A stretch of 64,000 bases of DNA from Microgenomates group bacterium (GCA_041659805.1 JBAZXP010000001.1:512589-576588), one strand, 5' to 3'. Positions 28,559 to 55,466 are shown, counted from the stretch's first letter. Notes: generated by a model not told the origin, from the sequence alone. Numbers and translations are program-made.

Positions 28559-30142
28559 TCAAGCTTTTCTGTGTCTTATGCCTAGTTTCCAAAGATAATA
28601 ACCCCAGGGGCCGGTAATTGTAGAAAAATCAAGCCTTTCTAAATGGGCTATTGCCCTTGAGATTAAGTATAAAGTTTTAATCGCCCAATATAAAGTAGGA
28701 TAGTTTTTTTGTTTTTCTTCGTAGCCTTTTACATATTTAAGAAGAAAAAAGAATATAAACTTCGGTGGTTTAAAAATGGCAAGGCTGTACAATAAGATAT
28801 TATCTAATGTTTTTCCAGTTTCTAAATATGAGGATTGTAAAGCCTGGATATCAATCTCTGGATGCTTCTTGAAATAATCAAAGAGTTTTGTTTTTGGAAA
28901 AATCCTTAAAGAAAAAATAGTCAAAGTATATGGTCTTTCCAACTCGTAAATAAACTTTAATGACTTGAGAATATCATCCAAAGTAGCAATAGGGTTGTCG
29001 GAAATAATATCATAGGCTGGAGGAATCATATTGTACTTTTTGGTTACTTTTGCCAGGATTTTAACTGATTGTTTGATATTTTTTAGAGATGTGGGGCGTT
29101 CGTAAAAGGCAAGTATTTTTTCACTTCCACTTTGAATTCCCATCCTTCCGCGGTTCATTCCTGCTTTTCCTAAAATTTCCATTTTTTGAGTGGTTACAAG
29201 ATTTGGATGAAGACCACTTACAGCGAAAGGCAAATTGATTCTTTTCTTATATTCTTTGGCAAATTTTTTAATGACGTCTAAAGGTAGCGCAATAAAATTA
29301 TCATCATTAAACATAATTGTTGTTATAAAAGGGTTTTTCTTTATATTTTCCTCAATTTCATCAAGAATATAATCGACAGAAGAGTAACGGATATTTCTGT
29401 AATTATTGTCAATTTTTATGAAGGCATCATTCGCACAATAAGTACACGAATAAGGGCACCCGAGTGTCCAAATTGTCCAATAGCACAAACCATTATACCT
29501 AAAAAAATCGCTCGTATTTAGATTTCGAAACGTTTTTATCTTTTGGTCATAGATGAAGCAATCATAATTGTGATAAAGATGGGGGAATAAACTTAATTCT
29601 TCTTTGGTATTTAGTGGACGGATAGGGTTTCGTATAATTCTTTTCCCTTGTCTAAACCACATATTAAGAGTTTGAGTATATTTTTTATTAATTAAATAAT
29701 TGGAATAAAACATTTCAAAAGGGACTTCACCTTCTCCGATGCAAATGGCATCAGCATGTTTTATTGCTTCTTCCGGATTAATTATGCAATGAACACCTCC
29801 CCAAACGATATAGGTCTTAGGATTGTATTTTTTTACAGCTGTTATTATTCGAGCAACGTATGATGAGCTAGGCGTCATAGAGGAGAAACAAAGTAGATCA
29901 GCCTTAGCAAGTTCCTTAGCTATTAAATTAATATCTTTATTGGTAAGCATGCTTTTATGAGAAGGTAACAGGTGATTTAAAAATGAATAGAGATTGCCAG
30001 GTGTAATAAAATAAATATCTATATTTGGATTAAGTTTACGTGCAACAGCTGCTACACGCCGGAATCCCAGGGCGTTTATACCTTCCTCCACAGAGACAAA
30101 TTTTACTTTTAAGTTCTTTTTATTGACTGTTTGTTTTGCCAT
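28559..30142 (-). CDS. B12-binding-domain radical SAM enzyme (class B)
   Basis: N-terminal ~200 aa Rossmann-like B12-binding-type domain, then 'LGCPYSCTYCAND' (CxxxCxxC). Confidence 0.8.
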   Translation of the reverse strand: MAKQTVNKKNLKVKFVSVEEGINALGFRRVAAVARKLNPNIDIYFITPGNLYSFLNHLLPSHKSMLTNKDINLIAKELAKADLLCFSSMTPSSSYVARIITAVKKYNPKTYIVWGGVHCIINPEEAIKHADAICIGEGEVPFEMFYSNYLINKKYTQTLNMWFRQGKRIIRNPIRPLNTKEELSLFPHLYHNYDCFIYDQKIKTFRNLNTSDFFRYNGLCYWTIWTLGCPYSCTYCANDAFIKIDNNYRNIRYSSVDYILDEIEENIKKNPFITTIMFNDDNFIALPLDVIKKFAKEYKKRINLPFAVSGLHPNLVTTQKMEILGKAGMNRGRMGIQSGSEKILAFYERPTSLKNIKQSVKILAKVTKKYNMIPPAYDIISDNPIATLDDILKSLKFIYELERPYTLTIFSLRIFPKTKLFDYFKKHPEIDIQALQSSYLETGKTLDNILLYSLAIFKPPKFIFFFLLKYVKGYEEKQKNYPTLYWAIKTLYLISRAIAHLERLDFSTITGPWGYYLWKLGIRHRKA

Positions 30143-30162
30143 GGTAACTTATACAATTATTG

Positions 30163-30798
30163 TTATTTCTTATGACAGACGAAAATTAGTGTTGAATCTG
30201 GAAAAATTGGGGAGCCGGTTAGAACCGTACAACCCAAACCCAGTTTACTAAAAACCTTGAGCCATTCTTTTCGAGTCCTAACGTTTATTTGTTCATTGGG
30301 ATATAGAACTTTTTCCCAAAAGTGACCAAACAAAAAGGGTAGTCTGTTAGAAGCATCAACTTCTTTAATAATTAGCAATGAACTCTTGTTTAATTTTTTA
30401 CTAAGAATGGTTAAAAGTTTTTGTTGTTCTTGAAATGGAATATGATGCAGCACATCTACCATTAGGTAATTTTCATATTTTTTGATGGTCATTTTTGTTA
30501 TATTGCCTAATTTAAACTTAATATTTTTTCTTCCACTAATCGACTGTTTTGCACTGATGATTCTGTTTTTTGAAAGATCGACCCCCAAAACCTTGCGTGC
30601 AGGAGAACATATTGCCAAGTAATTGCTCATGATTCCTGCACCGCATCCGACGTCCATAATAGTTCCTGAAAGAGGTAATGCTTTATCTATTTTCCAAAAA
30701 GGTAGTATTAATAGACGGATCATGCTTATGATGGACTTTTTAACACCCTGACTTTTATATATAAAAAAGAATGAAATTATATTAAAGATTGCATGCAT
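30163..30798 (-). CDS. Class I SAM-dependent methyltransferase
   Basis: 'IMDVGCGAGIMSNYLA', 'VLGVDLS', 'MVDVLHH'. Confidence 0.7.
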   Translation of the reverse strand: MHAIFNIISFFFIYKSQGVKKSIISMIRLLILPFWKIDKALPLSGTIMDVGCGAGIMSNYLAICSPARKVLGVDLSKNRIISAKQSISGRKNIKFKLGNITKMTIKKYENYLMVDVLHHIPFQEQQKLLTILSKKLNKSSLLIIKEVDASNRLPFLFGHFWEKVLYPNEQINVRTRKEWLKVFSKLGLGCTVLTGSPIFPDSTLIFVCHKK

Positions 30799-30802
30799 TG
30801 GA

Positions 30803-31765
30803 CTATTTTCTCTTAGGATGTATTGGTTTATTAAAAATACTTTTTACAATATATTTTGGTCGGTTTTTAACTTCTTCAAATATCTTACCAATATACTCCC
30901 CAAGGATACTTATTCCTAGAAGCTGTATTCCTCCTAAAAACAGAGTTAGTACTACGATTAGTGAAATGCCCCGTGGTGATTGAGGGTATAAAAGACGAAG
31001 AATAACTTGTATAACAATACCCACAAAAGAAAAGAAAACAACGAACATGGAAATATAAGTAATCATTTCTAAAGGTACATAGGAGAAAGAAAAAATTCCT
31101 TTTCTTGCCCAACCAAAGTTTTTATGCCAATTGTTTGTAGTTTTACCAAACATCCTCTCTGGTCTGGTGTATGGAATGCCAGTTTGATTAAAGCCTACCC
31201 AAGCCCGTAGACCTCTTAAAAAACGGTCTTTTTCAGGCATATTATTTAATACTTCAACGACATTTCTATCAATTAAAGAGAAATCACCGGCATCTACAGG
31301 AATCTTTATGTAAGATAGTTTTTGGAATATACGATAAAATAACTTGTAGCAAATTTGTAAGGTTGTGGTTGCTTCTCTTTTTACTCTTATGCCATAAATA
31401 ACATCATAGCCTTCTAACCACTTTCCGTAAAATTTTTCTATTAATTCTGGAGGATCCTGAAGATCTCCGTCTAAAAGTACAACAGCATCACCTGTTGCAA
31501 TCTCCATTCCACTGCTAAAAGCCATTTGTGATCCAAAATTGCGGGAATGGTTTATTGCAACTACTTTTTTATCCTTTTTTGCTAGTTTTTCCAGTATATT
31601 TTCTGTATCGTCGGGGCTTCCATCATTAACAAAAATAATTTCATAATCGATTTTTATTTTAGAAAAAACTTTAACTAATCTACTATACATAAATGGAACT
31701 GCCTGACCATCTTTGTAGCATGCAATAATTGCGGAAATTTTTCTTTTAGTTAAGATTTTAGCCAT
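30803..31765 (-). CDS. GtrB/ArnC/DPM1-like GT2 polyprenyl-phosphate glycosyltransferase with two C-terminal TM helices
   Basis: 'ISAIIACYKDGQAV', 'IIFVNDGSPDDT', 'VVLLDGDLQDPPELIEKF' (hallmark DxDLQDPP), then two C-terminal TM helices as in GtrB/ArnC. Confidence 0.8.
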   Translation of the reverse strand: MAKILTKRKISAIIACYKDGQAVPFMYSRLVKVFSKIKIDYEIIFVNDGSPDDTENILEKLAKKDKKVVAINHSRNFGSQMAFSSGMEIATGDAVVLLDGDLQDPPELIEKFYGKWLEGYDVIYGIRVKREATTTLQICYKLFYRIFQKLSYIKIPVDAGDFSLIDRNVVEVLNNMPEKDRFLRGLRAWVGFNQTGIPYTRPERMFGKTTNNWHKNFGWARKGIFSFSYVPLEMITYISMFVVFFSFVGIVIQVILRLLYPQSPRGISLIVVLTLFLGGIQLLGISILGEYIGKIFEEVKNRPKYIVKSIFNKPIHPKRK

Positions 31766-32676
31766 GTTAATGTCCTTTGTATTATAGAGTTGACGTCTAG
31801 ACCATCTAAGCTTCTCAGGTATTTTTGTGATCCTCCGACATTATGGTATTTGTCATCAATGCCAATTATTAATTGGTGACGCAAACAATCATTGCTTGCA
31901 ACATTTATCTCAGCAATAGCACTGCCCAATCCGCCAGTTATATTGTGTTCCTCGATTGTTATCAATTTAGAATGTTCTCCAATGATCTTTCTGATATGAT
32001 CCTTATCTAAAGGCTTAATAGTATGCACATGAATTAATGATGCATCTATCCCAACTTCCTGTAATTTCTCTTCAACAATGATAGATGATTCTAGCATGTT
32101 GCCGGTTGTAAAAATTACAAGATCTTTTCCTTTTTTTATTTCTACAGTTTTGCCTATACAGAAAGCACCTATATATTCATATGACAAAATTGGCTCACCT
32201 TTCTTACCCAAACGTAAATATACAGGCCCTTTTATACTAAACATATCATACGCTGCCCGGTAAGCTTCTAGCGGGTCTCCAGGGCAAATGACTGTCATGT
32301 TGGGAAGCGACCTCATTAAGGATATGTCTTCGATTGCACAATGAGATTGACCATTTAAGGAATAACCGTATCCTCCGCCGACACCAACTATTTTGACATT
32401 TAGATTTGGATAACAAACATCATTTCTAATTTGTTCGAATGCTCTGAAGGTTAAAAAAGGTACAATGCTATAGCAAACGGGTATGAGCCCGGAATGAGCC
32501 ATACCGGCTGCCATTCCGACCATATTTGCTTCTGAAATACCGGCATTAGTAAATCGTTCAGGAAATTTTTCGATAAATTCTTCAAAAACCTCGAAGCCCA
32601 AATCTGCAGTTGACAAGTGAATATTGCTATACTTTTTATTAGCGTTAATTAAGGCCTTAGAAAATGAAAGTCTCAT
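31750..32676 (-). CDS. Transketolase, C-terminal section (pyrimidine-binding and C-terminal domains), split form
   Basis: 'ADLGFEVFEEFIEKFPERFTNAGISEANMVGMAAGMA', 'VGGGYGYSLNGQSHCAIEDISLMRSLPNMTV' are transketolase central-domain signatures. 308 aa is the split TktB size. Confidence 0.8.
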   Translation of the reverse strand: MRLSFSKALINANKKYSNIHLSTADLGFEVFEEFIEKFPERFTNAGISEANMVGMAAGMAHSGLIPVCYSIVPFLTFRAFEQIRNDVCYPNLNVKIVGVGGGYGYSLNGQSHCAIEDISLMRSLPNMTVICPGDPLEAYRAAYDMFSIKGPVYLRLGKKGEPILSYEYIGAFCIGKTVEIKKGKDLVIFTTGNMLESSIIVEEKLQEVGIDASLIHVHTIKPLDKDHIRKIIGEHSKLITIEEHNITGGLGSAIAEINVASNDCLRHQLIIGIDDKYHNVGGSQKYLRSLDGLDVNSIIQRTLTWLKS

Positions 32677-33539
32677 AAATTTGTTTTACTTACAGTCTTC
32701 TTTACTTTTGTCCTTTTAAAATTTAGTGTTTCATCTATTTCCTTTAATGCTATCTGCATGTGTTGAGGTTTGGGGTCGTAATAATGCCACCTGAAATCTC
32801 CCTCCATAAAAGAAACTCCTTTACCAATTATCGTATTAGCGATAATAATATTAGGTTTGCTATCGGAGATGTTTGTTAAGGCTTTTGTGATTTGATCTAT
32901 GTTATGGCCATCGATTACAGACGTACTAAAATTGAATGTTTTCCACTTTGCTTCTAAAGGTTCCATATTAATAATATCCTTTGTATTTCCTAAACCTTGG
33001 GTTCCATCTCGGTCTAAAATTACAACTAAATTGTTTAGATGATGATGTCCTGCGAATAAAGCTGCTTCCCAAATTGTACCTTCGTTAATTTCTCCATCAG
33101 AAATTAGGACATAAATTTTATATTGTTTATTCATTAATTTAGCTGCATAGGCCATGCCAACACCAACCGATAAACCATGCCCTAATGAGCCGGTCCCCCA
33201 ATCAATCCCAGGTAAACCATTTGATTCCGGATGAACCATTAATTTACCACCGTCTTGGCAGAAAGTATCTAAAGTTTCCTTATTAAAAAAACCACGATGA
33301 TGTAATACAGTAAAAAGCCCTGCTCCTGCATGACCCTTACTTAAAATAAACCGATCGCGTTCCTCCCAAAAAGGATCATTTGTACGAATATTTAAAATTT
33401 TAAAATAAAGTGTTGTTAATAGATCTATTACTGATAAAGAGGAGCCGACATGACCGATTTGGACATTATGGGAGATTGTTAACATGTCGCGTTTTATTAT
33501 TTGACACATTTTTATTAAGGAGATATTTGATTTTGACAT
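32673..33539 (-). CDS. Transketolase, N-terminal section (ThDP-binding), split form
   Basis: 'GHVGSSLSVIDLLTTLY', 'DRFILSKGHAGAGLF', 'GSLGHGLSVGVGMA', 'ISDGEINEGTIWEA'. ATGA overlap with the C-terminal section gene. Confidence 0.8.
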   Translation of the reverse strand: MSKSNISLIKMCQIIKRDMLTISHNVQIGHVGSSLSVIDLLTTLYFKILNIRTNDPFWEERDRFILSKGHAGAGLFTVLHHRGFFNKETLDTFCQDGGKLMVHPESNGLPGIDWGTGSLGHGLSVGVGMAYAAKLMNKQYKIYVLISDGEINEGTIWEAALFAGHHHLNNLVVILDRDGTQGLGNTKDIINMEPLEAKWKTFNFSTSVIDGHNIDQITKALTNISDSKPNIIIANTIIGKGVSFMEGDFRWHYYDPKPQHMQIALKEIDETLNFKRTKVKKTVSKTNL

Positions 33540-33548
33540 GTTTTGAAT

Positions 33549-34523
33549 CTAATTTTTGTTATACAAGTCCTTATTGATTTTAAACCAATTAATTGCTTCC
33601 ATCAAACCTTCAGTGAGTGTATTTTTAGGTTGCCATTTGAGAACGTTTTTTGTAAGTTGATTATTTCCTAGCCAAAAACTAGTATCCCAAGGACGGCCTG
33701 GATAACTGCCTATAGCAATCTCAGATTTAGAATGTGCTAATTTCACAATCAGTCTGGTAATTTTTTCAATAGAGGTTTGTTTACCAGAGCAGATATTAAA
33801 AGTTCTTTGATCAAATTTTTTTAATTTAGTACATTGAAGATAAGCATCAATTAAGTCTTCGATGTATACAAAGTCTCTTTTTTGTGAGTTGCCTACAATA
33901 TTAATTTTTTGACTATTCAATGCTTGCATTATTACAGTCGGGATTAATCTTCCCGGCTCTTCATATGGACCAAATATAGAGAAAAGACGAATAGTTATTA
34001 TTGGCTTTTTCATCATAAGTCCGTAGGTATTACAGATTAAGGTGGAAGCTGCTTTAGTTGCTGAGTAGTAACTATTTGGTTCCAAAAGATCTGTTTCTTT
34101 CATGGGATGACTCTTATAACCATATTCAGATGAAGAACCGGTATTTACAAAAATTTGATAGTCGGTGTTTTCTAAGGCGAGTAATAAATTTTTTGTTCCA
34201 TTTATATTAATTTGTACCGCAGATTCCAAAGAGTTTTGTTTCGCGTAAGCACCATATGCTGCCAGATGAAAAATTATATCTGGTTTTATTTTTGATAAAT
34301 TTCTCTTGAGATTTTCTTGATCAGCTAAATCAACTTGTAAAATTTTAACTTTTTTAAGAATGTCCTTAATCCTCCAAGTATCAGAACTTTTTCTTAGGGT
34401 AATATATATTTTTGCTTGTGGGTAATTTGAAATTAAACGCCGTAATAAATTTGATCCGACAAAACCCGCTGCTCCTGTAATCAATATCTTCTTGCCATTT
34501 AAATTTGGTGCTTTTATAGCCAT
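33549..34523 (-). CDS. NAD-dependent epimerase/dehydratase (extended SDR)
   Basis: 'KKILITGAAGFVGSNLLRRL', 'YSATK' catalytic dyad. Confidence 0.75.
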   Translation of the reverse strand: MAIKAPNLNGKKILITGAAGFVGSNLLRRLISNYPQAKIYITLRKSSDTWRIKDILKKVKILQVDLADQENLKRNLSKIKPDIIFHLAAYGAYAKQNSLESAVQININGTKNLLLALENTDYQIFVNTGSSSEYGYKSHPMKETDLLEPNSYYSATKAASTLICNTYGLMMKKPIITIRLFSIFGPYEEPGRLIPTVIMQALNSQKINIVGNSQKRDFVYIEDLIDAYLQCTKLKKFDQRTFNICSGKQTSIEKITRLIVKLAHSKSEIAIGSYPGRPWDTSFWLGNNQLTKNVLKWQPKNTLTEGLMEAINWFKINKDLYNKN

Positions 34524-34581
34524 TTTTTAGAAATAATAGATCTAATGGCAGATTTTAAGTAGAGCTTATAACAACCTACTT

Positions 34582-34595
34582 TGTAGATTTCTACA
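34582..34595. promoter_or_regulatory. Perfect 6-2-6 inverted repeat TGTAGA-TT-TCTACA in the largest intergenic region
   Basis: Seen directly at 34582-34595, about 60 bp upstream of the minus-strand epimerase gene start (34523). Candidate operator or small structural element. Confidence 0.25.
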
Positions 34596-34665
34596 TTACA
34601 TTAAACAAGTAAAAATATCAATGACTCTTAGTTTAAATGATATAGAATGATTTAATAAATAATAG

Positions 34666-35439
34666 TTAAAAGGGGACACAAAGGGGAGAAACGGTCGACA
34701 AGCCCCCATCAACTCTTATTTCTGCTCCAACAATATAACTAGCAAGGTCAGAAGCTAAAAAGGATACTACCTGCGCAATTTCCAATGGAGTCCCCCACCT
34801 ACCCAAAGGAATTTTACTGGAGATCTCATTTACTTTTTCAGGTAAAGTCTTTTCGGTAATACCAGTAGGATAAATTGCACCAGGTGCAACTGCATTAACT
34901 CGGATCCCTTTTGACGCCCATTCAACAGCGGCAGTCCTCATAAAAGTCAACAAACCGCCTTTTGATGCATCATAGGCTCCGTTATCCAAAAAAGCTTGTC
35001 CAGTATGTACTGATGTAACAAAAGTAATAGAACCTTTATCCCCTCTTTTAAGAATTTTTCTCCCAATGATTTGGGTCATATTAAAAGAACCAGTTAAATT
35101 AACATCCAAGGTTTCTTGCCAAACTTGACTATCCATTTTTTCAACTGATCCTTCAGGATTAATACCCGCATTACTAACAAGTGTGTTAATATTTCCCAGC
35201 TCACTTTCCACTTCACTTAAAGACTTGCTAATATTTTCTCTATCTCTGACATCAACGACGTAACCTCTAAGTGAAGAAGATGATAGTTCCTCTATAGTTT
35301 TTTCTATCTGAAGCCTATTAACATCAAAAAGGGCTACAATAGCTCCTTCTTTCAGGAAGTTTTTGACTACCGCTTTACCAATGCCATAAGCTCCGCCAGT
35401 TACAACAGCAATTTTTCCGTCTAAAAGCAATCTTTCCAT
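34666..35439 (-). CDS. Classical short-chain dehydrogenase/reductase (SDR)
   Basis: 'GKIAVVTGGAYGIGKAV' (TGxxxGxG), 'NAGI', 'YDASKGG' (YxxxK). Confidence 0.8.
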   Translation of the reverse strand: MERLLLDGKIAVVTGGAYGIGKAVVKNFLKEGAIVALFDVNRLQIEKTIEELSSSSLRGYVVDVRDRENISKSLSEVESELGNINTLVSNAGINPEGSVEKMDSQVWQETLDVNLTGSFNMTQIIGRKILKRGDKGSITFVTSVHTGQAFLDNGAYDASKGGLLTFMRTAAVEWASKGIRVNAVAPGAIYPTGITEKTLPEKVNEISSKIPLGRWGTPLEIAQVVSFLASDLASYIVGAEIRVDGGLSTVSPLCVPF

Positions 35440-35442
35440 ACT

Positions 35443-36453
35443 TTAATAATGGCTAACTTGGTATTTTATATAACCACTATACCTTTGTCCAGGAGCTACT
35501 GATAATAGGTGGGATTCTTGTTTAAATCCTTGTTTATCAAGATTCAAAGCATCAGTGGAGCAAGTTTGATTTTCCATGCAGAAGAAAGGCTCTGTAACAG
35601 AGGGAGTATAAATAGTAAGATGGCTGAAGTCGCCCGAAGTTTCTAAGTTAATTTTTAGCTTTTCAGAAGTATAATCAATACTTCCATATTTTCCTGGTTC
35701 AAGTCCCGTAAATACATGATCAAGATTTAAACGATTAAGCCGTTGAGGTTGTCTTAAATCAAAAGCAGTTCCTTCAACGTTATCTAATCTTCCTGATGGC
35801 AGCAACTCGCTATCTGCTTTCATCACATAATTAGCCGGTGCCGAAATTAATATTGTTGATTTTTCTGATAAAGCTTTAAAATAAGGATGTAAACCAAATC
35901 CAAAAGGTAAATCTTGTTTTGATTGATTATCAATAGTATATACAACTTTCATACCATCAGTAGAAAGAATATAGTCTAAGGATATACGACTTTTAAAAGG
36001 AAACCCGGCAAAAAAGGGATGATTTTCATTAATTTCAGTATAAGTCCGTACTCGAGTAAAATTCTTACTAGCAATTGGTAAGTCAAAATTCCAAGGTTTA
36101 TCAAAGACTAAACCATGCACTAAAACATTATTACCCTGAGGTCTTTTTAAACCAGCTAAAGAATATTCCTCACCTTGCCAAGAATATTTTTTATCTTTCA
36201 GTCTATTTGGAATAGGCCACATTACAAAAGTTCCTGTAAAATCCCGTGCTCTTAATAAGTCAGAATCACAATGGATTAAATCTAAATCTCCCAACCGAAA
36301 CTTAAAAAGGTTACTGCCGAATTCAGGTGCAATGGAAGCAGTAAGATCTTTGGAAGGATCTATGTCTTTATAAGAAAGTTCAACAACTGGGCTCTTTTCT
36401 AAAGAGACATCAGTTTTAATATTAGCATCAAAAATTCCTAATTCCTTTGTCAT
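35443..36453 (-). CDS. Aldose 1-epimerase (galactose mutarotase-like) family protein
   Basis: 'HGLVFDKPWNF' and 'FGFGLHPYF' (the G-x-HPYF motif of Aldose_epim) with a catalytic-type Glu in 'FFCMENQ'. Confidence 0.55.
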   Translation of the reverse strand: MTKELGIFDANIKTDVSLEKSPVVELSYKDIDPSKDLTASIAPEFGSNLFKFRLGDLDLIHCDSDLLRARDFTGTFVMWPIPNRLKDKKYSWQGEEYSLAGLKRPQGNNVLVHGLVFDKPWNFDLPIASKNFTRVRTYTEINENHPFFAGFPFKSRISLDYILSTDGMKVVYTIDNQSKQDLPFGFGLHPYFKALSEKSTILISAPANYVMKADSELLPSGRLDNVEGTAFDLRQPQRLNRLNLDHVFTGLEPGKYGSIDYTSEKLKINLETSGDFSHLTIYTPSVTEPFFCMENQTCSTDALNLDKQGFKQESHLLSVAPGQRYSGYIKYQVSHY

Positions 36454-36454
36454 T

Positions 36455-37381: not shown

Positions 37382-37419
37382 AGGATGCTCTTATTGGAAG
37401 GTATTATAACAAATTGGCT

Positions 37420-48373: not shown

Positions 48374-48420
48374 CATTCATAAATTGACGTATATATAATC
48401 TGTCTCATAAAGGGAATTTT

Positions 48421-49569
48421 GTGAGAAAAAGAAAAATTGCATATATAACTGGTACAAGAGCAGATTATGGTTTAATGACCCCTGTTTTGCGAAGTATTGA
48501 AGAAAGCAAAAAATTAGAACTCCAACTTTATACAACTGGTATCCATTTAATGCCGCAATTTGGTGAAACAGCTAAATTAGTTAAAAAAGAATTTCCACAA
48601 ACAAGAAGAATCAAAGCAATTTTTAAAACAGATGAAAAATCCAGCGTGGTTGATTTTTCCGGACTTTATATTAATTTATTGAACAAGGTTTTTAAAAAGG
48701 ATAAACCGGATATTGTCTTAATTTTGGGTGATAGGGTAGAGATGCTATGTACGGCAATGGTTTGTTTATATTTAGGAATTCCTACTGCACATATTCACGG
48801 AGGAGAGAAAACTTTTACAGTTGATGAGGTTTCCCGTCATGCAATTTCTAAAATTTCTAGTTTGCATTTTCCTGCAACAAAAGAATCTGCCGAAAGAATT
48901 CTAAAAATGGGGGAAGAAAAATGGCGGATACATGTAGTTGGAGCCCCGACATTGGATAGTATCTTAAATAAAAAACTACCAACAAGAATAGAAGTTCTTG
49001 AAAAATTAAGTATGGATCCAAAGCAAAAATTTATTTTGGTAGTTCAACATCCAGTGAGCAGTGAAATGAAAGATTCGGGTTATCAAATGCAAGAAACAAT
49101 TACTGCAGTAAAAGAAATTAATTTGCCCGTTGTGATAATTTATCCCCATCCTGATCCGGGTGGGAGAAAGATTATTAAAATTATAGAAAAAGAAAAGAAT
49201 AACCCATTATTTCATATTTTCCCGAACATAGATTTTGAATCGTTTTTAGCACTGGAGCGCGAAGCAATAGTTTGGGTAGGTAATAGCAGTGCAGCGATGA
49301 TAGAGTCGTCATCTTTTAAAACTCCAGTGGTAAATATCGGTACGAGACAGATCGGTAGACAGCGGGGAGAAAATGTAATTGATGTAGGATATAACAGAAA
49401 AAATATCTTAATAGCCATAAAAAAATCCTTGACTGATAAGTCATATCTTGCTAAGCTGCAAACTATCAAGAATCCTTGGGGAGATGGTAAAACAGGATCA
49501 AGGATTGTCCGAATTTTGGAAGAAATTGAAATTAACTCCAAAATATTAATCAAACAAATAACATATTAA
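48421..49569 (+). CDS. Hydrolysing UDP-sugar 2-epimerase (NeuC/LegG family)
   Basis: 'KIAYITGTRADYGLMTPVL', 'ILGDRVEMLCTAMV', 'HIHGGE' are the NeuC-type Epimerase_2 signature. GTG start with an 'AAAGGGA' motif 6 nt upstream. Confidence 0.8.
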   Translation: MRKRKIAYITGTRADYGLMTPVLRSIEESKKLELQLYTTGIHLMPQFGETAKLVKKEFPQTRRIKAIFKTDEKSSVVDFSGLYINLLNKVFKKDKPDIVLILGDRVEMLCTAMVCLYLGIPTAHIHGGEKTFTVDEVSRHAISKISSLHFPATKESAERILKMGEEKWRIHVVGAPTLDSILNKKLPTRIEVLEKLSMDPKQKFILVVQHPVSSEMKDSGYQMQETITAVKEINLPVVIIYPHPDPGGRKIIKIIEKEKNNPLFHIFPNIDFESFLALEREAIVWVGNSSAAMIESSSFKTPVVNIGTRQIGRQRGENVIDVGYNRKNILIAIKKSLTDKSYLAKLQTIKNPWGDGKTGSRIVRILEEIEINSKILIKQITY

Positions 49570-51095
49570 TGCACGATAATTTTAAAAATTGGAAACTGCC
49601 TAAATTTAATAAAACTGGCATGACCAAATGGAATTGGATGTGTCAATATCACGAAAATCTTAAATTAGGCAAATACACAGATATAGGCGCTTTTACTTAT
49701 ATTAATGCTAATTTTGGAGTCGAGATAGAAGATTATGTAGAGATCGGTTCGGGGTGTAGTATTTATTCTAACAATACTATCGACGGAATAACCGGAAAAA
49801 TTGTTATCAAAAAAAATGCTAAAATCGGAGCTCATTGTACCATTATGCCAGGAGTAACAATCGGAGAGAACTCTTTGATTGGAGCATATAGTTTTGTAAA
49901 GAACGATATCCCCGCAAATTGTACGGCATTCGGAATTCCGGCTAAAGTTATTAAAAAAACCAACCGGCATAACGATAAGATTCAGATTGCCAAGCCGTTC
50001 ATTGATGAAACTGATAAAAGAGCTGTAATGGACGTTTTGGAATCAGGTTGGCTTTCATTGGGTCCAAAATATAAGGAATTTGAAACCAATATAGCTTCGT
50101 ATACCAGTGCAACTTATGCTTGTGCGGTATCCAGTGGTACTTCAGGACTTCATTTGGCAGTCATTGCACTGGGATTAAAAGCAGGAGATGAGGTAATTAC
50201 TACACCATTTTCTTTTGTAGCCTCATCGAATTGTCTAATATACGAAGGGGTAAAACCGGTATTTGTTGATATAGAAGAAGAGACTTTTAATTTAGATCCT
50301 GATAAAATCGAAGCGGCAATAACAAAAAGAACAAAAGCAATTTTAGTTGTACATATCTTCGGTCAATCCGCGCGGATGGATAAGATTTTGAAAATTGCTA
50401 AAAAATATAAACTGAAAGTTATTGAGGATTCATGTGAGAGTTTGGGCGCCAGGTTCCAAGATAAGATGACAGGAACATTCGGAGATATCGGTGTTTATTC
50501 TTTTTACCCCAATAAACAAATGACTACAGGAGAAGGAGCGGTAATTGTTACAAATTCAAAAAAGTTATATGAATTATGTGATAGTTTGAGAAATCAGGGT
50601 AGAGGTTTAAGAGAGTCTAAAAAAGGGAAAGATTGGGATTGGCTCATGAGTGAAAGGGTAGGATATAACTACCGGATGGATGAAATGAGCGCTGCGCTTG
50701 GAGTGACACAACTCCAAAAAATTGATTGGATGATTGGTGAAAGAAGGAAAATTGTAGATCTATATAAAAAATATTTAGGAGAAATGGAAAGTATTATGGT
50801 TCCCATAATAGGTAAAAACAGAACCCATACATGGTTTGTATATGTCATTAGAGTGTTGAATAACAAACGAGATAAATTAATGAGCGATCTATCTGCTTCG
50901 GGTATTCAAGTAAGACCCTATTTACCGGCAATTCACTTACAATCGTTTATGAAAAAAATGTTCGGTTTTAAAAAGGGAGATTTTCCTGTAACCGAAAATA
51001 TTTCCTCCCAGACACTTGCGCTACCTTTTTATATTGGATTAGCAGAAGATGATATTAAATATATAGCAAATAAAATAAGGGAATCGCTTAAATGA
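49569..51095 (+). CDS. Fused left-handed-beta-helix N-acetyltransferase (PglD/LegH-like) plus DegT/DnrJ/EryC1 PLP-dependent sugar aminotransferase (PglE/LegC-like)
   Basis: Residues ~40-150 are hexapeptide repeats ('IGSGCSIYSNNTIDG', 'IGAHCTIMPGVTIGENSLIGAYSFV'). Residues ~160-508 are 'DVLESGWLSLGPKYKEFE', 'SFYPNKQMTTGEGA' (PLP-Lys region), 'YYRMDEMSAALG'. Confidence 0.8.
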   Translation: MHDNFKNWKLPKFNKTGMTKWNWMCQYHENLKLGKYTDIGAFTYINANFGVEIEDYVEIGSGCSIYSNNTIDGITGKIVIKKNAKIGAHCTIMPGVTIGENSLIGAYSFVKNDIPANCTAFGIPAKVIKKTNRHNDKIQIAKPFIDETDKRAVMDVLESGWLSLGPKYKEFETNIASYTSATYACAVSSGTSGLHLAVIALGLKAGDEVITTPFSFVASSNCLIYEGVKPVFVDIEEETFNLDPDKIEAAITKRTKAILVVHIFGQSARMDKILKIAKKYKLKVIEDSCESLGARFQDKMTGTFGDIGVYSFYPNKQMTTGEGAVIVTNSKKLYELCDSLRNQGRGLRESKKGKDWDWLMSERVGYNYRMDEMSAALGVTQLQKIDWMIGERRKIVDLYKKYLGEMESIMVPIIGKNRTHTWFVYVIRVLNNKRDKLMSDLSASGIQVRPYLPAIHLQSFMKKMFGFKKGDFPVTENISSQTLALPFYIGLAEDDIKYIANKIRESLK

Positions 51096-52087
51096 ATGAT
51101 TTCCGTACTACTTTTAAAAACAAAAGAATTTTGGTTACAGGAGGTACTGGTTCGATTGGTAGTGAAATTGTCAGACAACTAATTCCTTTAAAACCTAAAC
51201 AAATCAGGATTTATTCGAGAGATGAATCAAAACAATACCAACTACAGCATGAACTAAGTTACTTTACTAACAATAAAGATATTTTACGTTTTTTGATCGG
51301 AGATATTCGGGATAAAGAAAGATTGAAAAGAGCCTTTAATGATATAGATATTGTTTTTCATGCAGCTGCGCTAAAACATGTGCCCTTTTGCGAAGATAAC
51401 CCCTTTGAAGCCACAAAAACTAATGTTCAAGGTACCCAAAACGTCCTAGATTTAGCGATTGACCATAGGGTAGAAAAAGTAATAGCTATTTCATCTGATA
51501 AAGCTGTAAATCCAAACACGTTTATGGGAATAACTAAATTAATGATGGAAAGAATGGTGATTTCTGCTGCTAACTACTCAGGGCAACTGGAAACTAAATT
51601 CGCTGCGGTAAGATTTGGTAATGTTATCAATTCAAGGGGTTCTGTGATTCCTTTGTGGATAGATCAAATAAAAAAGGGTGGGCCGGTTACTGTAACAGAT
51701 AAAAAGATGGAAAGATATTTTATGACTATTAGAGATGCTGTAAATCTTATATTTATGTCCACAAAAATTATGTTGGGAAAGGAGATCTTTGTTCTTAAAA
51801 TGTCTAAGTGTAATATCTATGAATTAGCTCAAGAAGTAATTGATCGTTATAGTAGTGGTAAGTTAATTAAAATAAAGATTACTGGTTCTAGAATAAGAGA
51901 AAAATTAGACGAACGTTTATATACAGATGAAGAAGAACAATTGATGATTGATGCGGGATTGTTTAATATTATTCAACCAACTATGGAGGACCTCAAAAAA
52001 CGATTATCTAAATATAATATTAGCAAAAAAAATAGAAATATTAAAATTGCCGATATATTTGATTCACTTCCAAAATTAAACAACTAG
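51092..52087 (+). CDS. UDP-GlcNAc 4,6-dehydratase (Polysacc_synt_2; PseB/PglF/CapD type)
   Basis: 'KRILVTGGTGSIGSEIVRQL', 'FLIGDIRDKERL', 'VFHAAALKHVPFCEDNPFEATKTNVQGT', 'ISSDKAVNPNTFMGITK', 'VRFGNVINSRGSVIPLW'. Confidence 0.85.
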   Translation: MNDFRTTFKNKRILVTGGTGSIGSEIVRQLIPLKPKQIRIYSRDESKQYQLQHELSYFTNNKDILRFLIGDIRDKERLKRAFNDIDIVFHAAALKHVPFCEDNPFEATKTNVQGTQNVLDLAIDHRVEKVIAISSDKAVNPNTFMGITKLMMERMVISAANYSGQLETKFAAVRFGNVINSRGSVIPLWIDQIKKGGPVTVTDKKMERYFMTIRDAVNLIFMSTKIMLGKEIFVLKMSKCNIYELAQEVIDRYSSGKLIKIKITGSRIREKLDERLYTDEEEQLMIDAGLFNIIQPTMEDLKKRLSKYNISKKNRNIKIADIFDSLPKLNN

Positions 52088-52110: not shown

Positions 52111-53682
52111 TTATTTTTTTAATGAGAATTGTTTTAAGAAACTATTGATTCGAACAAGGGTATTTAATATTTTTGGATATTGATTACCAATTGCAATAAA
52201 ATTATTAGTTTCTGTAATTATAGTAATAAAATAATCAAATATACCAAGAGCAAGTCCAAAAACAAATACTATGAAGCTGTAAATTATTCCAGTAATGATG
52301 AATTGAATGAAATTATGTGGAGCAAAACCTGTAAATTCAATAAAAATATATAAAAATAAGGAAAAAATAATAATGATGCCGTAAAGTTTGAATGGAAAAT
52401 TAAAAATTAATTCTTTTTTGACTGTTTTTGCGAACAAAATTATTGACAATAAATATACTGCCGTGCTAGCAACTGCAGCACCTGTGATTCCATAAAGTCT
52501 AATTAAAATTATACTCAAGATTACATTGAATATGGCGATTATTACTGATATTTGCATTCTTTCCCGGACTTTTCCCATTCCGCTGGCTATAGTTGTTAAA
52601 AAACTTGAAAGTAAGGCAAGAATAGAGCCGAAAGCCATAATTCTTAATGGAGTTTCTACTAAACCAACCCATTTTGCACCGAAGATTATTTGAACTGTAA
52701 ACGAAGGGAAGAGAATAATGAATAAAGAAAAATAAGATCCAACAAAGGGGATAAGCTGAAGGCTGGCATTTAATATATAACGTGTTTTTGTCTGCTCTCC
52801 TTCCATAAGATGAGAAACTAACGGAAATAATAAATTATTTATTGGAGAAAGAAAAATACTTGGAATTGATATTAAAGGTAGTATTATATTGTAGATACCA
52901 ACTTCTCTAACATTTTTAAATAAAGTTAAGAAAAAATTATCAGTGAAGGTTATAAAAGTATAAATAGATGTAGTAATTAATGTAGGAATTGCGTATTGAA
53001 GCATTGTTGTAAATAATTTTCTATCCCATGACAAAGTTTTTTTCTTGAAATCCATATTTTGGCTTAATGAGTATGTATAAACAACAGTGCATATTATGTG
53101 TGATAGTGCCCAGGCAAGAGTGAAATAAAGTATGTTAGCATAATCAAAAACTAAGAATAATAAGGAAAATATCAATGCTAAAAATAGTCTGGAAAATTGT
53201 ATCGAGGAATAGATTTTTTCTTGCTGCAGTCCTGTAAACATTTTATACAATGCTTCTAAAAAGCTATTGGCAATAAAATAGATACAAAAAATATAAATTA
53301 GATTTTGTGCCTCGGGGACCTTAAAATAATTGATGCTCAACCAAGGTGCGGAAGCGATTAAGATTAATGAGAGTAAAATTGATGTCCCGACTTCAATAAA
53401 CTGGTTATATTTAAAAACCAGCCAACTTTTTTGAAAATCTTTTTGTTTGATAAATTTAGGAATTAGATAAGTGACACTATAACCGAATCCGAGATCCTTA
53501 TATGTTGTTAAGATCCCAAAAAAAGCAAGTAATGAATAGAATAGTCCATACATCTCAATCGATAAAGAATTAGAATAAAGAATTCGTAAGACATATCCTA
53601 ATGGGGATGTTAAAAGCGAGAAGAAAATGATAATGGATGTTCCTTTAAATATTCTTTTTGACAAAATTTCTTGGTTATGCAT
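52111..53682 (-). CDS. wzx: Wzx-type oligosaccharide flippase (MOP superfamily; Polysacc_synt family)
   Basis: 523 aa, about 14 TM helices, typical Wzx N-terminus ('KGTSIIIFFSLLTSPLGYVLRILYSNSL'). Confidence 0.55.
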   Translation of the reverse strand: MHNQEILSKRIFKGTSIIIFFSLLTSPLGYVLRILYSNSLSIEMYGLFYSLLAFFGILTTYKDLGFGYSVTYLIPKFIKQKDFQKSWLVFKYNQFIEVGTSILLSLILIASAPWLSINYFKVPEAQNLIYIFCIYFIANSFLEALYKMFTGLQQEKIYSSIQFSRLFLALIFSLLFLVFDYANILYFTLAWALSHIICTVVYTYSLSQNMDFKKKTLSWDRKLFTTMLQYAIPTLITTSIYTFITFTDNFFLTLFKNVREVGIYNIILPLISIPSIFLSPINNLLFPLVSHLMEGEQTKTRYILNASLQLIPFVGSYFSLFIILFPSFTVQIIFGAKWVGLVETPLRIMAFGSILALLSSFLTTIASGMGKVRERMQISVIIAIFNVILSIILIRLYGITGAAVASTAVYLLSIILFAKTVKKELIFNFPFKLYGIIIIFSLFLYIFIEFTGFAPHNFIQFIITGIIYSFIVFVFGLALGIFDYFITIITETNNFIAIGNQYPKILNTLVRINSFLKQFSLKK

Positions 53683-53742
53683 TTAGGAGAAGACTCAGGT
53701 AATTATAGTATCATACAAATTAGCGTGATGCTATTTTCTTTG

Positions 53743-53751
53743 TGATATAAT
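53743..53751 (+). promoter_or_regulatory. Extended -10 element (TGATATAAT) upstream of radical SAM gene 53784
   Basis: 'TGATATAAT' matches TGnTATAAT. It lies 32 nt upstream of the ATG in a 101 bp divergent intergenic region. A second TATAAT on the opposite strand (complement of 53702-53707) sits 19 nt before the wzx start. Confidence 0.35.
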
Positions 53752-53783
53752 CATCGGATTGAATAGCCCTTCACTTTAGGAAG

Positions 53784-55466
53784 ATGTTGTTATTATTAAA
53801 AAGCATTGTTACGAATATTCCGTTTTCCATAAGGTTATACATTTTATGGCGAAAGTCTAATATTTTATGGAATACAAAAATTTCCCCGTTTGTGATTCCG
53901 GATAAGAAAAAAGAATACTTAAGTAAAACTTTTTTTGATAGGAAATCAGTCAGTAAAAAGAAAGGTCCGGTGGTTCTTGTTTCCAGGGATATTGCTTTTA
54001 CATTTCCTTTATCATATGCATATTTGGCAGGTTATTTAAAAGAAAAAGGAGTTGATGTAGTTATCCTTTTTAAAAACATAGGCCAGGACGAATTGGTTAA
54101 AAAAATAAAAAAACTCCATCCCATTTTAGTCGGTTTTGGAAATTTATATCCGGAACTTGAGGAGATCTCAAGTATTATATATAAACTAAATCAATCAGGA
54201 CGTGATTTTCCAATTGTTATTGGCGGGCAGATGTTTTCCCCTATTCCGGAATTTGCTATGAAATTAACTGGTGCAGATTACGGAGTGATCGGTGAAGGAG
54301 AAATCATACTCTATAAATTAGTAAAAGCTTTACAGAAAAATTCTGATCTTTCTAAAATCAAAGGCTTAGTCATCAGAGATAAGGATAAAATTACTATTAA
54401 TGACGGAGGAGAGTATATTGATGACCTGTCAAAACTTCCCAAAATTCCATATGAATTATTTGATGTCGATAAATGGTTGTTGATTGGAAGATGGTTTACC
54501 CAATTCAGGCCTGAACAACCACATTGGAGATTTGATGACAGGGTTATTAATGTACATGGTGGACGAGGATGTCCGTTTAAATGTAATTTTTGTTATCACC
54601 ATAATAAACCAAGGTACCGTGATATTAACGATATGATGGACGAAGCGGAAAAAGCATTAGAAAGGTTTGACGCAAACATGCTTTACTTTTCAGACGATTT
54701 AGTAATCGCCAATCCTCAAAGAGTTAGAGAATTGATAGCCAGGGTTAAAAGACTCAAGCGCCCGATAAGTTATAAAATTTCAACTAGGTTTGATATTTTA
54801 GAAAGGCTTAGTGATGAACTGCTTAAGGAGCTACATGAAACAGGATGCAGGATTATTGGTTTAGGGGTAGAATCCGGATCTAATAGGATACTAAAATTAG
54901 TTGGTAAAAATACAACTTCTGAAAAGATCTTAAAAGGACTTAAAAGGATCAAACAGTCCGGAATATTACCGACTGTTTCTGTAATGGTAGGTCAATATAC
55001 GGAAACAAGAGAGGATGTAGAGAAATCTTTTGAACTGATGAAAAAAGCTGTTAAAACTAATCCCTTAATTTCGTTCGCTTTTACTATCACAACTCCTTTT
55101 CCCGGCTCAATTTTATACGATATCTTATTTGCCAAAAAATTGTTGAAAAGTGATGAGGACTTTTATTACCGCTATATCGCTGGAAAAGTTGGACCATGGA
55201 ATCAGGTGGTTAATATGTCATCAATGTCTGATTACGAAGTAATAAAATTAAGAAATGAACTTGAGAAAAGCTATAACGAAGAAAGGCTTAAAGCGTTAGG
55301 GGAAGAGCGTTTCGAAAAGATAACAAGAATATGTAATAAACAAAGAAGAGCTGCAGAAGTTTTTGAAAGTAAGACTAAAAGAGAAAAGAAAAGGGATGAG
55401 GCTGCTTATTCTGAGGAACAACTAGAACTTGAAAATGAAAAATTATCTCTAATGGGAGTAGCTTGA
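53784..55466 (+). CDS. B12-binding-domain radical SAM enzyme (class B) with charged C-terminal tail
   Basis: 'GPVVLVSRDIAFTFPLSYAYLAGYLKEKGVDVVIL' B12-binding-like domain, 'HGGRGCPFKCNFCYH' (CxxxCxxC). Confidence 0.8.
   Translation: MLLLLKSIVTNIPFSIRLYILWRKSNILWNTKISPFVIPDKKKEYLSKTFFDRKSVSKKKGPVVLVSRDIAFTFPLSYAYLAGYLKEKGVDVVILFKNIGQDELVKKIKKLHPILVGFGNLYPELEEISSIIYKLNQSGRDFPIVIGGQMFSPIPEFAMKLTGADYGVIGEGEIILYKLVKALQKNSDLSKIKGLVIRDKDKITINDGGEYIDDLSKLPKIPYELFDVDKWLLIGRWFTQFRPEQPHWRFDDRVINVHGGRGCPFKCNFCYHHNKPRYRDINDMMDEAEKALERFDANMLYFSDDLVIANPQRVRELIARVKRLKRPISYKISTRFDILERLSDELLKELHETGCRIIGLGVESGSNRILKLVGKNTTSEKILKGLKRIKQSGILPTVSVMVGQYTETREDVEKSFELMKKAVKTNPLISFAFTITTPFPGSILYDILFAKKLLKSDEDFYYRYIAGKVGPWNQVVNMSSMSDYEVIKLRNELEKSYNEERLKALGEERFEKITRICNKQRRAAEVFESKTKREKKRDEAAYSEEQLELENEKLSLMGVA

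Follow-up and report, generated by a model that had tools for sequence, protein, structure and literature searches.

The window, by which we mean the whole 64-kb stretch of DNA analysed here, belongs to a CPR bacterium (Microgenomates/Daviesbacteria) with a reduced genome, a possibility raised in an earlier note, and is filled entirely by glycan biosynthesis. Four of its open reading frames, rS1–rS4 (527, 469, 538 and 560 aa), had been singled out for an N-terminal cobalamin-type domain followed by a CxxxCxxC motif, and their coordinates, Pfam matches and motifs bear this out (Table 1). In each protein a B12-binding domain (PF02310; 46.0, 55.1, 56.4 and 63.2 bits, gathering score 32.1) precedes a radical SAM core (PF04055; 55–86 bits, gathering score 29.5), the domain order of class B enzymes, and the cysteine motif lies within PF04055, placing all four in the radical SAM superfamily. 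Among six-frame ORFs of 150 aa or longer, no others in the window contain CxxxCxxC. Each of the four family alignments shows an invariant Cys triad (Cys229/233/236 of rS1, Cys248/252/255 of rS3 and Cys263/267/270 of rS4, for example), and the N-terminal motifs GG(x)H/GGQ and GEGE are likewise invariant. A class-I fold, with a five-stranded Rossmann domain packed on a TIM-like barrel, was found for rS2 only. The class B-type identity proposed earlier withstood the two findings that would have spoken against it, a HemN or SPASM assignment and a missing Cys triad: rS1 alone gives a weak HemW/HemN-like match (48.8 bits, cutoff 205), and none of the four matches a SPASM model in Pfam or NCBIfam. 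No cobalamin riboswitch was found within the 64-kb window.

Table 1 Features of the glycan island around the four radical SAM genes (positions in the window)
Feature	Position	Strand	Details
Class I SAM methyltransferase	27840-28547		flanks rS1
rS1	28559-30142	-	PF02310 aa 69-143 (29714-29938); radical SAM aa 224-369; CPYSCTYC at 29435-29458
Class I SAM methyltransferase	30163-30798	-	directly upstream of rS1; Pfam Methyltransf_31/25/11
GT2 glycosyltransferase	30803-31765	-	rS1 module; Pfam
Split transketolase	31750-33539	-	ThDP-binding N-terminal half 32673-33539; pyrimidine-binding and C-terminal half 31750-32676; Pfam Transketolase_N, Transket_pyr, Transketolase_C
SDR sugar-nucleotide epimerase/dehydratase	33549-34523	-	rS1 module; Pfam Epimerase, GDP_Man_Dehyd
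BFO_1060-family glycosyltransferase	39262-40587	+	convergent with rS2; NCBIfam NF046086, 356.7 bits (cutoff 200)
rS2	40592-42001	-	B12-binding aa 22-133; radical SAM aa 205-362; CIFQCNFC at 41354-41377
Class I SAM methyltransferase	42089-42883	+	conserved in rS3 cassette; Pfam
EamA/DMT-family transporter	42886-43749	+	between methyltransferase and cytidylyltransferase; Pfam EamA
CMP-nonulosonate synthetase (cytidylyltransferase)	43752-44477	+	Pfam CTP_transf_3
rS3	44470-46086	-	Pfam B12-binding aa 35-146; radical SAM aa 243-419; CPNACFFC at 45322-45345
Unknown 388-aa protein (unk388)	46125-47291	-	upstream of rS3, same strand
Core 5,7-diamino-tetradeoxy-nonulosonic acid pathway	47324-52087	+	four genes below; Pfam, NCBIfam
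NeuB-type synthase	47324-48373	+	NeuB_NnaB TIGR03569, 421.7 bits (cutoff 399.65)
Hydrolysing 2-epimerase	48421-49569	+	NeuC_NnaA TIGR03568, 397.2 bits (cutoff 235.9)
Fused acetyltransferase-aminotransferase	49569-51095	+	PseC-like, 330.6 bits (below cutoff 423.5)
PseB-like 4,6-dehydratase	51092-52087	+	299.5 bits (below cutoff 407.75)
Wzx-type flippase	52111-53682	-	divergent from rS4; Pfam Polysacc_synt, Polysacc_synt_3
rS4	53784-55466	+	Pfam B12-binding aa 74-177; radical SAM aa 260-418; CPFKCNFC at 54570-54593
ABC-2 type (Wzm/Wzt-like) glycan exporter	55474-57020	-	ATPase 55474-56232, permease 56235-57020; Pfam ABC_tran, ABC2_membrane
Methyltransf_24 (TylF-like) methyltransferase	57107-58090	+	Pfam

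Pairwise identity among the four proteins is just 22–30%. Scored against the NCBIfam models for BchE (TIGR02026), HpnJ (TIGR03471), PhpK/Fom3-type (TIGR04479), HpnR, KedN5, TsrM-type (TIGR04428), MgmA (TIGR04014) and ladderane (TIGR04072) enzymes and TIGR04013, they reach at best 79–143 bits, with cutoffs of 251–775. Judged by sequence, rS1–rS4 are likely to represent four distinct uncharacterised subfamilies of class B-type radical SAM enzymes, a view that we hold jointly with their role in glycan tailoring. Because none of them attains any equivalog cutoff, their reaction type is assigned by analogy.

The window encodes six conventional methyltransferases in total. The earlier statement that each radical SAM gene is flanked by such enzymes applies to rS1, on both sides, and to rS2, on one side; it fails for rS3, which lies between the cytidylyltransferase and unk388, and for rS4, which lies between the flippase and the ABC ATPase. 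The glycan-island setting itself is well founded, both in the content of the window and in the neighbours of orthologues: three of the four proteins keep glycan-pathway neighbours in unrelated organisms. A 13-kb cassette that has been gained or lost between sister strains includes two of the four genes. Loci with two to four B12-radical SAM genes recur elsewhere, so such clustering is not unique to this island.

The synthase and the 2-epimerase score above their equivalog cutoffs and a CTP_transf_3 protein is present, identifying a nonulosonic acid cluster. All series-specific cutoffs were missed, namely those of LegB (78 bits, cutoff 475), LegC (286.5, 420), PseI (274, 340) and PseF (155, 205.7; the best NCBIfam model for the cytidylyltransferase), as well as PseB and PseC (Table 1). 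Since NeuB/NeuC-like and PseB/PseC/PseF-like scores are mixed, no single stereochemical series is assigned; our label ‘Leg/Pse-type’ spans both series, neither of which is singled out by the NCBIfam scores. The glycosyltransferase encoded next to rS2 is predicted from its sequence to be a BFO_1060-type (Tannerella forsythia) transferase of nonulosonic-acid derivatives. BFO_1060 is among the T. forsythia transferases of Pse/Leg derivatives (PMC5420450).

The rS3 gene is part of a conserved cassette, and its 3′ end overlaps that of the cytidylyltransferase gene. Its family is very small: eight clusters share at least 51% identity, after which identity falls to 26%. Orthologues (54–84% identity) adjoin a CTP_transf_3 gene in every context examined, and a class I methyltransferase, an unk388 homologue and NeuB are nearby wherever the contig extends that far. 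The methyltransferase homologues in these positions are 53–62% identical to the island protein in loci L003, L021 and L022 and 33% identical in L018; those of unk388 are 58–76% identical in L003, L021 and L023 and 28% identical in L018. The unk388 protein has no match in Pfam, NCBIfam or the PDB and carries invariant DTE, His and Asp residues in the alignment of its homologues. No homologue of the EamA transporter was found in loci L003–L023; in L003, the homologues of the methyltransferase and the cytidylyltransferase lie side by side, which leaves no transporter at this position.

The rS2 family is large, with 62–73% identity across phyla and 61–68% for orthologues within Leg-type operons. 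Such operons contain an rS2 orthologue in Thermodesulfovibrionia, Heliobacterium chlorum, Sulfuricella, Desulfoscipio geothermicus, where the operon adjoins Maf and flagellin genes, and Wukongibacter baidiensis, where the order is Maf, flagellins, LegB, LegC, rS2, PtmE, acetyltransferase, NeuB and further Leg-type genes. In the cultured D. geothermicus and W. baidiensis, these are flagellin glycosylation islands. The Kuenenia orthologue has no NeuB within 9 kb.

The neighbourhood of rS1 is of a different kind. This uncharacterised family, too, is large, counting 697 representatives at E ≤ 1e-30, and the split transketolase, SDR and GT2 genes are retained around its closest members: homologues of the transketolase (46–50% identity) and of the SDR (40–46%) adjoin rS1 homologues in loci L029 and L031, a GT2 gene adjoins the orthologue in L031, and a 65% identical GT2 homologue adjoins the one in L036. 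With the methyltransferase, these genes would form a separate module, whose composition suggests a carbon-branched or chain-extended sugar as product. The rS4 family is likewise large, with orthologues at 68–89% identity in Daviesbacteria-type and other assemblies and at 50–64% in Desulfobacterales, Omnitrophota and Actinobacteria. Members occur in glycan loci (two examples), and some (two proteins) carry a class I methyltransferase domain in the same polypeptide. As part of our overall explanation, the rS4 family is likely a generic resident of glycan loci.

Taken together, we consider it likely that rS1–rS4 are cobalamin-type radical tailoring enzymes in the surface-glycan biosynthesis of this CPR bacterium, and we infer cobalamin binding, substrate and reaction as follows. 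The N-terminal cobalamin-type Rossmann domain would act with a [4Fe-4S]/SAM TIM-barrel core: reductive cleavage of SAM would generate a 5′-deoxyadenosyl radical, this radical would take a hydrogen off an unactivated sugar carbon, and methylcobalamin would donate a methyl group. By analogy with GenK, Fom3 and TokK, the tailoring chemistry is probably C-methylation. Both rS2 and rS3 would serve the island's single Leg/Pse-type 5,7-diamino-3,5,7,9-tetradeoxynonulosonate pathway, with an intermediate at the nucleotide-sugar stage, the free sugar or its CMP-activated form as substrate, and the modified nonulosonate would then be installed by the BFO_1060-type transferase. At least two of the four enzymes fall into uncharacterised families that accompany nonulosonic acid pathways across many bacteria, which suggests that these sugars undergo a radical modification so far unstudied. 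More tentatively, rS2 and rS3 may each represent a new family whose members change the carbon skeleton of bacterial sialic-acid-like sugars, C-methylation of Leg/Pse-type sugars or their NDP/CMP precursors being one example. We know of no description of a C-methylated nonulosonic acid. If this proposal is correct, the enzymes would yield a class of nonulosonic acid so far unreported from flagella, S-layers or CPR surfaces, and surface decoration alone would make an ultra-small CPR bacterium, in which cofactor biosynthesis is not obvious, reliant on scavenged corrinoids.

Cobalamin-dependent chemistry might instead proceed by ring contraction, rearrangement or oxidative cyclisation, as in OxsB, HpnJ and BchE, and yield a skeleton-rearranged rather than a methylated sugar. 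The best NCBIfam scores of rS2 and rS3 are indeed those for BchE and HpnJ (142.7 and 134.2 bits for rS2), and OxsB, a non-methylating class B enzyme, aligns across both domains of rS2. The substrates of HpnJ and OxsB are sugar rings. The top scores are 3- to 7-fold under the cutoffs, and the hopanoid, bacteriochlorophyll and oxetanocin contexts of these enzymes are absent around rS1–rS4. We consider this route unlikely.

About as unlikely, in our view, is cobalamin-independent chemistry, in which the N-terminal Rossmann domain would be a relic, as in AprD4 and ArsL, and dehydration/deoxygenation, epimerisation or oxidation would rely on [4Fe-4S] and SAM. This would fit a CPR bacterium unable to make B12; to our knowledge, cofactor biosynthesis is generally thought to be absent from these organisms. 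Sequence and fold comparison does not separate cobalamin binders from AprD4, and the lower-axial residue maps to inconsistent positions through the OxsB and TokK alignments. AprD4 (PDB 6FD2), the radical SAM 1,2-diol dehydratase of apramycin biosynthesis, has a B12-like domain without cobalamin, according to a 2026 review of B12-radical SAM enzymes. Similarity to it is nevertheless confined to the radical SAM core in each of the four proteins, and its NCBIfam model (NF033070, cutoff 500) gives at most 88 bits (rS2, 87.8; rS3, 45.8; rS4, 43.1; rS1, no match). Unlike AprD4, which binds no cobalamin, all four proteins exceed the Pfam B12-binding threshold, by 14–31 bits. The N-terminal domains of rS1, rS2 and rS4 align with those of true cobalamin binders: rS1 with residues 56–156, the cobalamin domain, of TokK (E = 7e-14), the rS2 profile with OxsB, CysS and TokK, and the rS4 profile with TsrM residues 24–395. 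For the corresponding domain of rS3, the support is the Pfam match. Furthermore, the N-terminal domain of the rS2 family is conserved nearly as well as the core (~27% versus 35% invariant columns).

A non-sugar target (lipid carrier, flagellin or pilin acceptor, or cofactor), with mere co-location among glycan genes, could be read from the monocistronic placement of rS2 and rS4, whose neighbours are on the opposite strand, and from the flagellin genes near rS2 orthologues in two Firmicutes, but is highly improbable given that in W. baidiensis and Sulfuricella the rS2 orthologue lies inside the operon, with LegC on one side and the next Leg gene on the other, that core Leg genes are its sole neighbours in H. 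chlorum, that non-flagellar glycan loci hold it in such CPR bacteria and Thermodesulfovibrionia, and that a CMP-sugar synthetase gene always adjoins rS3.

Tailoring of a surface sugar by rS1–rS4 can be set against known systems. The four proteins have the same architecture, a B12-type Rossmann domain and a CxxxCxxC barrel, as GenK and GenD1 (gentamicin), Fom3, TokK, ThnK and CysS, a set of cobalamin-dependent radical SAM C-methyltransferases with sugars or CMP-activated compounds as substrates, and rS2 alone could be placed in the fold class of TsrM, CysS, TokK and MgmA, with identity to solved members of 17–21%. Fom3 is a class B C-methyltransferase that acts on a CMP-activated substrate, cytidylyl-2-hydroxyethylphosphonate; as with GenK/Fom3-type enzymes, the genes described here are associated with those of sugar-nucleotide and CMP-activating enzymes, consistent with a predicted tailoring role. 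Unlike that group, they reach no family cutoff (TIGR04479, at most 115 bits versus 600), and their context is not an antibiotic cluster but a primary surface glycan (nonulosonic acid; glycosylation of the flagellin or S-layer type). The earlier note had called such chemistry unexplored for surface glycans, and this agrees with the literature searched, in which we found nothing linking radical SAM enzymes with nonulosonic acids; the 2026 review nowhere mentions glycans or sugars. With the Leg/Pse pathways of Campylobacter jejuni, Legionella and T. forsythia, in which Ptm enzymes and N-acyl tailoring are known, the island shares the synthase, 2-epimerase, 4,6-dehydratase, aminotransferase, acetyltransferase, CMP-synthetase and BFO_1060-type transferase. 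As far as the literature was searched, the characterised pathways include no radical SAM enzyme, whereas the island does.

With moderate confidence, we read four ORFs of the window, rS1–rS4, as class B radical SAM enzymes that tailor surface sugars, and we rate their link to glycans above any specific chemistry. Each contains an N-terminal B12-binding domain (PF02310; 46.0, 55.1, 56.4 and 63.2 bits across the four, gathering score 32.1) and, C-terminal to it, a Radical_SAM domain (PF04055; 55–86 bits). The motif CxxxCxxC occurs once in each and in none of the other ORFs of at least 150 aa in the six frames of the window. Coordinates, Cys motifs and N-terminal domains are as an earlier note on this DNA had described them. 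Its claim that a conventional methyltransferase gene flanks each ORF holds for both sides of rS1 and for one side of rS2, but fails for rS3 and rS4. No curated NCBIfam cutoff is reached by any of the four, the top scores being 79–143 bits versus cutoffs of 251–775 (TIGR04013, BchE, HpnJ, ladderane-type and PhpK type). HemN-like matches are weak and confined to rS1 (NCBIfam), and SPASM is matched by none of the four (Pfam, NCBIfam). Consequently, the non-B12 assignments that the note had named as fatal to its proposal were looked for without being found. A recent paralogous expansion is ruled out because rS1–rS4 are just 22–30% identical to each other.

The start of rS4 differs between gene calls: the NCBI call lacks the 36 N-terminal codons (53784–53891) and encodes 524 aa. 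The closest orthologues (551–564 aa) align from end to end with the longer form, which has a hydrophobic N-terminus; in most remoter relatives (about 515–520 aa), the match covers only about 80–90% of it.

Features of the window, with window positions
Feature	Position	Strand	Details
Three tandem paralogous PMT_2/GT-C membrane glycosyltransferases	7137-11994	+	537, 542, 529 aa
Lone ORF	22636-23490	-	284 aa
Methyltransferase	27840-28547		
rS1	28559-30142	-	527 aa; B12-binding + Radical_SAM (Pfam)
Split transketolase	31750-33539	-	N-terminal and pyrimidine/C-terminal genes separate; inside glycan operon
SDR	33549-34523		
FabG-like SDR, aldose 1-epimerase, inositol-monophosphatase-family gene	34666-37381	-	grouped in glycan island
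BFO_1060-family glycosyltransferase	39262-40587		356.7 bits vs cutoff 200
rS2	40592-42001	-	469 aa; B12-binding + Radical_SAM (Pfam)
Class I methyltransferase	42089-42883		
EamA/DMT transporter	42886-43749	+	between methyltransferase and CMP-sugar synthetase genes
CMP-sugar cytidylyltransferase	43752-44477		
rS3	44470-46086	-	538 aa; B12-binding + Radical_SAM (Pfam)
unk388	46125-47291	-	388 aa; adjoins rS3 orthologues
Nonulosonic acid cassette	47324-52087		four enzymes
Hexapeptide acetyltransferase fused N-terminally to DegT-type aminotransferase	49569-51095	+	508 aa, one protein
rS4	53784-55466	+	560 aa; B12-binding + Radical_SAM (Pfam)

All recognisable genes of the 64 kb are glycan-related. 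The window holds about fifteen GT2, GT4 or GT-C glycosyltransferases, the three tandem PMT_2-type genes among them, along with six conventional methyltransferases, sugar-nucleotide SDRs, a Wzx flippase and an ABC-2 exporter. The host belongs to the CPR/Patescibacteria and has a genome of about 1 Mb, and the closest NeuB (80% identity) is found in a Candidatus Daviesbacteria MAG. A recent foreign island is ruled out by the GC content, which is even at 29–37% across the window. An Rfam scan of the window matched no family, and hence no cobalamin riboswitch. The lone minus-strand ORF shows weak matches to the 2-Hacid_dh_C NAD-binding and UDP-glucose dehydrogenase central domains and may encode a truncated or divergent dehydrogenase; a 41%-identical homologue is present in L022 (L numbers denote homologous loci fetched for comparison).

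The nonulosonic acid cassette comprises a NeuB-type synthase (TIGR03569, 421.7 bits, above the cutoff of 399.65), a hydrolysing 2-epimerase (TIGR03568, 397.2 bits, above the cutoff of 235.9), the acetyltransferase–aminotransferase fusion and, as fourth enzyme, a PseB-like 4,6-dehydratase. Unlike in this fusion, acetyltransferase and aminotransferase are separate genes in L012, L018, L023 and L024. The glycosyltransferase at 39262–40587 belongs to the BFO_1060 family, that of the transferases for pseudaminic or legionaminic acid (Pse/Leg) derivatives in Tannerella forsythia (PMC5420450). The pathway product is predicted at the level of a 5,7-diamino-3,5,7,9-tetradeoxynonulosonic acid, as the models specific to one stereochemical series (LegB, LegC, PseB, PseC, PseF and PseI) all score below cutoff on window genes.

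Very few sequences make up the rS3 family: eight 90%-identity clusters at 51–100% identity, before the next match at 26%. In every fetched context, the family member adjoins a CTP_transf_3 gene: L003 from Daviesbacteria, L018–L020 from an organism with 53.5% GC, L021, L022 and L023. Three further components are found wherever an rS3-locus contig extends to their position: homologues of the class I methyltransferase (33–62% identity; L003, L018, L021, L022), homologues of the 388-aa protein unk388 (28–76%; L003, L018, L021, L023) and the NeuB/epimerase/aminotransferase/dehydratase set. No homologue of the EamA/DMT transporter was found in the other rS3 loci; in L003 it is missing from this position, and methyltransferase and synthetase adjoin. 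In the family alignment of unk388, a DTE motif and several His and Asp residues are invariant, which suggests a metal hydrolase. The protein, which has no match in Pfam (all five family members), NCBIfam or a PDB sequence search, may represent a new family of metal-dependent hydrolases or deacetylase-like proteins. Its single-sequence AlphaFold model has a pLDDT of 34.5.

In contrast to rS3, the rS2 family is large, with 4,127 matches at E<=1e-30 among the candidates scored. Among 120 matches listed, the two closest are 83–94% identical and the rest, which include members of many phyla, 63–73%. This makes rS2 better conserved than NeuB, itself 46–49% identical between the same taxa. Three of the 15 loci fetched via NeuB (Halanaerobiales, Nitrospiraceae and Thermodesulfovibrionia) carry an rS2 orthologue a few kb away. 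The gene order in L012 is LegB-like, LegC-like, PglD-like, NeuB, Epimerase_2, PtmE-like, SDR, GFO/IDH/MocA oxidoreductase, rS2, CTP_transf_3 and Wzx. Leg-type clusters are also present in four of the five loci fetched via rS2 homology alone. Desulfoscipio geothermicus has flagellins, FliW, CsrA, Maf and rS2, then LegB/C/H/G/I, PtmE and LegF; Wukongibacter baidiensis has Maf, four flagellins, Maf, LegB, LegC, rS2, PtmE, acetyltransferase, NeuB, Epimerase_2, formyltransferase, PIG-L and CMP-synthetase; and Sulfuricella has LegB, LegC, rS2, Epimerase_2 and deacetylase, then others including FkbH, NeuB, PglD and PtmE. In Heliobacterium chlorum, rS2 adjoins an operon of core Leg genes only. Because this cluster lacks accessory genes, we infer that the simplest substrate for rS2 would be an intermediate or product of the core pathway. 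Members of the rS2 family, at 62–73% identity, sit in legionaminic-acid operons across Firmicutes, Nitrospirota and CPR.

The rS2 orthologue of the anammox organism Candidatus Kuenenia stuttgartiensis lies in a 19.4-kb glycan locus (L026) that has one radical SAM gene besides four of the B12-binding type, and no NeuB within 9 kb of the orthologue. Methyltransferases and a LIC12162-family protein are encoded there too. For the Kuenenia S-layer glycan, 14-Da (methyl) heterogeneity is reported in a paper that mentions neither radical SAM genes nor a gene cluster (PMC5088730).

The family of rS1 is large and uncharacterised (14,051 representatives at E<=1e-3, 697 at E<=1e-30, best identity 61%) and is widespread in marine, soil and freshwater metagenomes. 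Its closest relatives are in L029 and L031 (61%), L036 (54%) and L034 (51%). All four loci keep split transketolase homologues (34–50%) beside the rS1 relative, L029 and L031 keep a homologue of the SDR at 33549–34523 (40–46%), and a GT2 homologue (65%) is found in L036, with a further GT2 adjoining the rS1 relative in L031 (Pfam). This retention defines a conserved module. The pairing of rS1 with a split transketolase suggests a two-carbon transfer onto a sugar, and the module hints at a carbon-branched or chain-extended product.

The two methyltransferase genes that lie 13.4 kb apart in the window, on either side of 28559–42001, have homologues in the sister Daviesbacteria MAG (L003) with just one ORF, of 440 aa (3542–4864), between them. 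The intervening block holds the rS1 module, SDR, aldose 1-epimerase, the IMPase-like gene, a 598-aa protein, the BFO_1060 transferase and rS2. Since a single ORF replaces it in L003, two of the four radical SAM genes (rS1 and rS2) are in a variable cassette, and the putative nonulosonate transferase is exchanged with them; the difference is a strain-level cassette exchange within the glycan island. The 440-aa protein has no counterpart in the window and 51–52% homologues in L021 and L022.

Orthologues of rS4 are 68–89% identical, and relatives at 50–64% are many in Desulfobacterales, Omnitrophota and Actinobacteria. Two non-CPR contexts are glycan loci with GT2, GT4, FkbM methyltransferases, DegT and ABC exporters; one adds PtmE and CTP_transf_3, the other a second B12-radical SAM gene. 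The rS4 homologues P0423 and P0424 and the distant rS3 homologue P0038 contain class I SAM methyltransferase domains as natural fusions, P0423 also TPR repeats, which suggests that both kinds of methyltransferase share one substrate. Two to four B12-radical SAM genes per locus recur in L026, L048, L011, L012, L028, L029 and L068. Rather than a one-off, the window is thus a rich case of a pattern that is widespread but has not been described.

Cobalamin binding by rS1–rS4 is predicted from sequence. The main rival is that they are cobalamin-free enzymes like AprD4, performing dehydration or epimerisation. AprD4 is the best PDB sequence match for rS2, rS3 and rS4, and both AprD4 and ArsL bind no cobalamin though they fall within the B12-radical SAM similarity network (PMC12931638). 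However, the AprD4 match is limited in each family profile to the radical SAM core, whereas the N-terminal domains can be aligned to enzymes that do bind cobalamin: that of rS2 to OxsB, CysS and TokK, that of rS1 to TokK residues 56–156 (E=7e-14) and that of rS4 to TsrM. For rS3, the evidence for this domain is the Pfam match only. None of the four families shows variation in the GG(x)H/GGQ and GEGE motifs of the N-terminal domain. The lower-axial residue (TokK W76, OxsB N186, TsrM R69), mapped with the aim of predicting methylase versus non-methylase, falls at different offsets from the conserved Ser in two alignments.

In our reading, the nonulosonic acid pathway would be the site of action of rS2 and rS3, the transketolase-linked sugar module that of rS1, and rS4 would act elsewhere in the glycan. 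On flagella, S-layers and LPS, nonulosonic acids shape how cells move, attach to one another and are recognised by phages and immune systems. To our knowledge, their known diversity lies in stereochemistry and in N- or O-acyl and methyl decoration, not in radical chemistry. The rS2 family points to a sugar modification and a B12-radical SAM substrate class that would both be new, and this lead can be tested directly in cultured D. geothermicus, H. chlorum and W. baidiensis. Four corrinoid-type enzymes in a CPR genome of this size, all for the cell surface, would mean that glycan tailoring merits a vitamin dependency; if so, the corrinoid would need to come from host or community.

In the library searched, no paper connects legionaminic, pseudaminic or other nonulosonic acids, or the glycosylation of flagellin, with radical SAM enzymes, and nothing relevant was found on polysaccharides, C-methylation or O-antigens in connection with B12-dependent radical SAM, or on CPR with B12-binding radical SAM. 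Glycans go unmentioned in a 2026 review of this enzyme class (PMC12931638). The leading chemistry would be C-methylation of an unactivated sugar carbon, drawn by analogy from GenK, Fom3, TokK and CysS, with a cobalamin-dependent rearrangement as one rival. Set beside these systems, the enzyme architecture is known, whereas the substrate class is apparently new and the conserved families are new.
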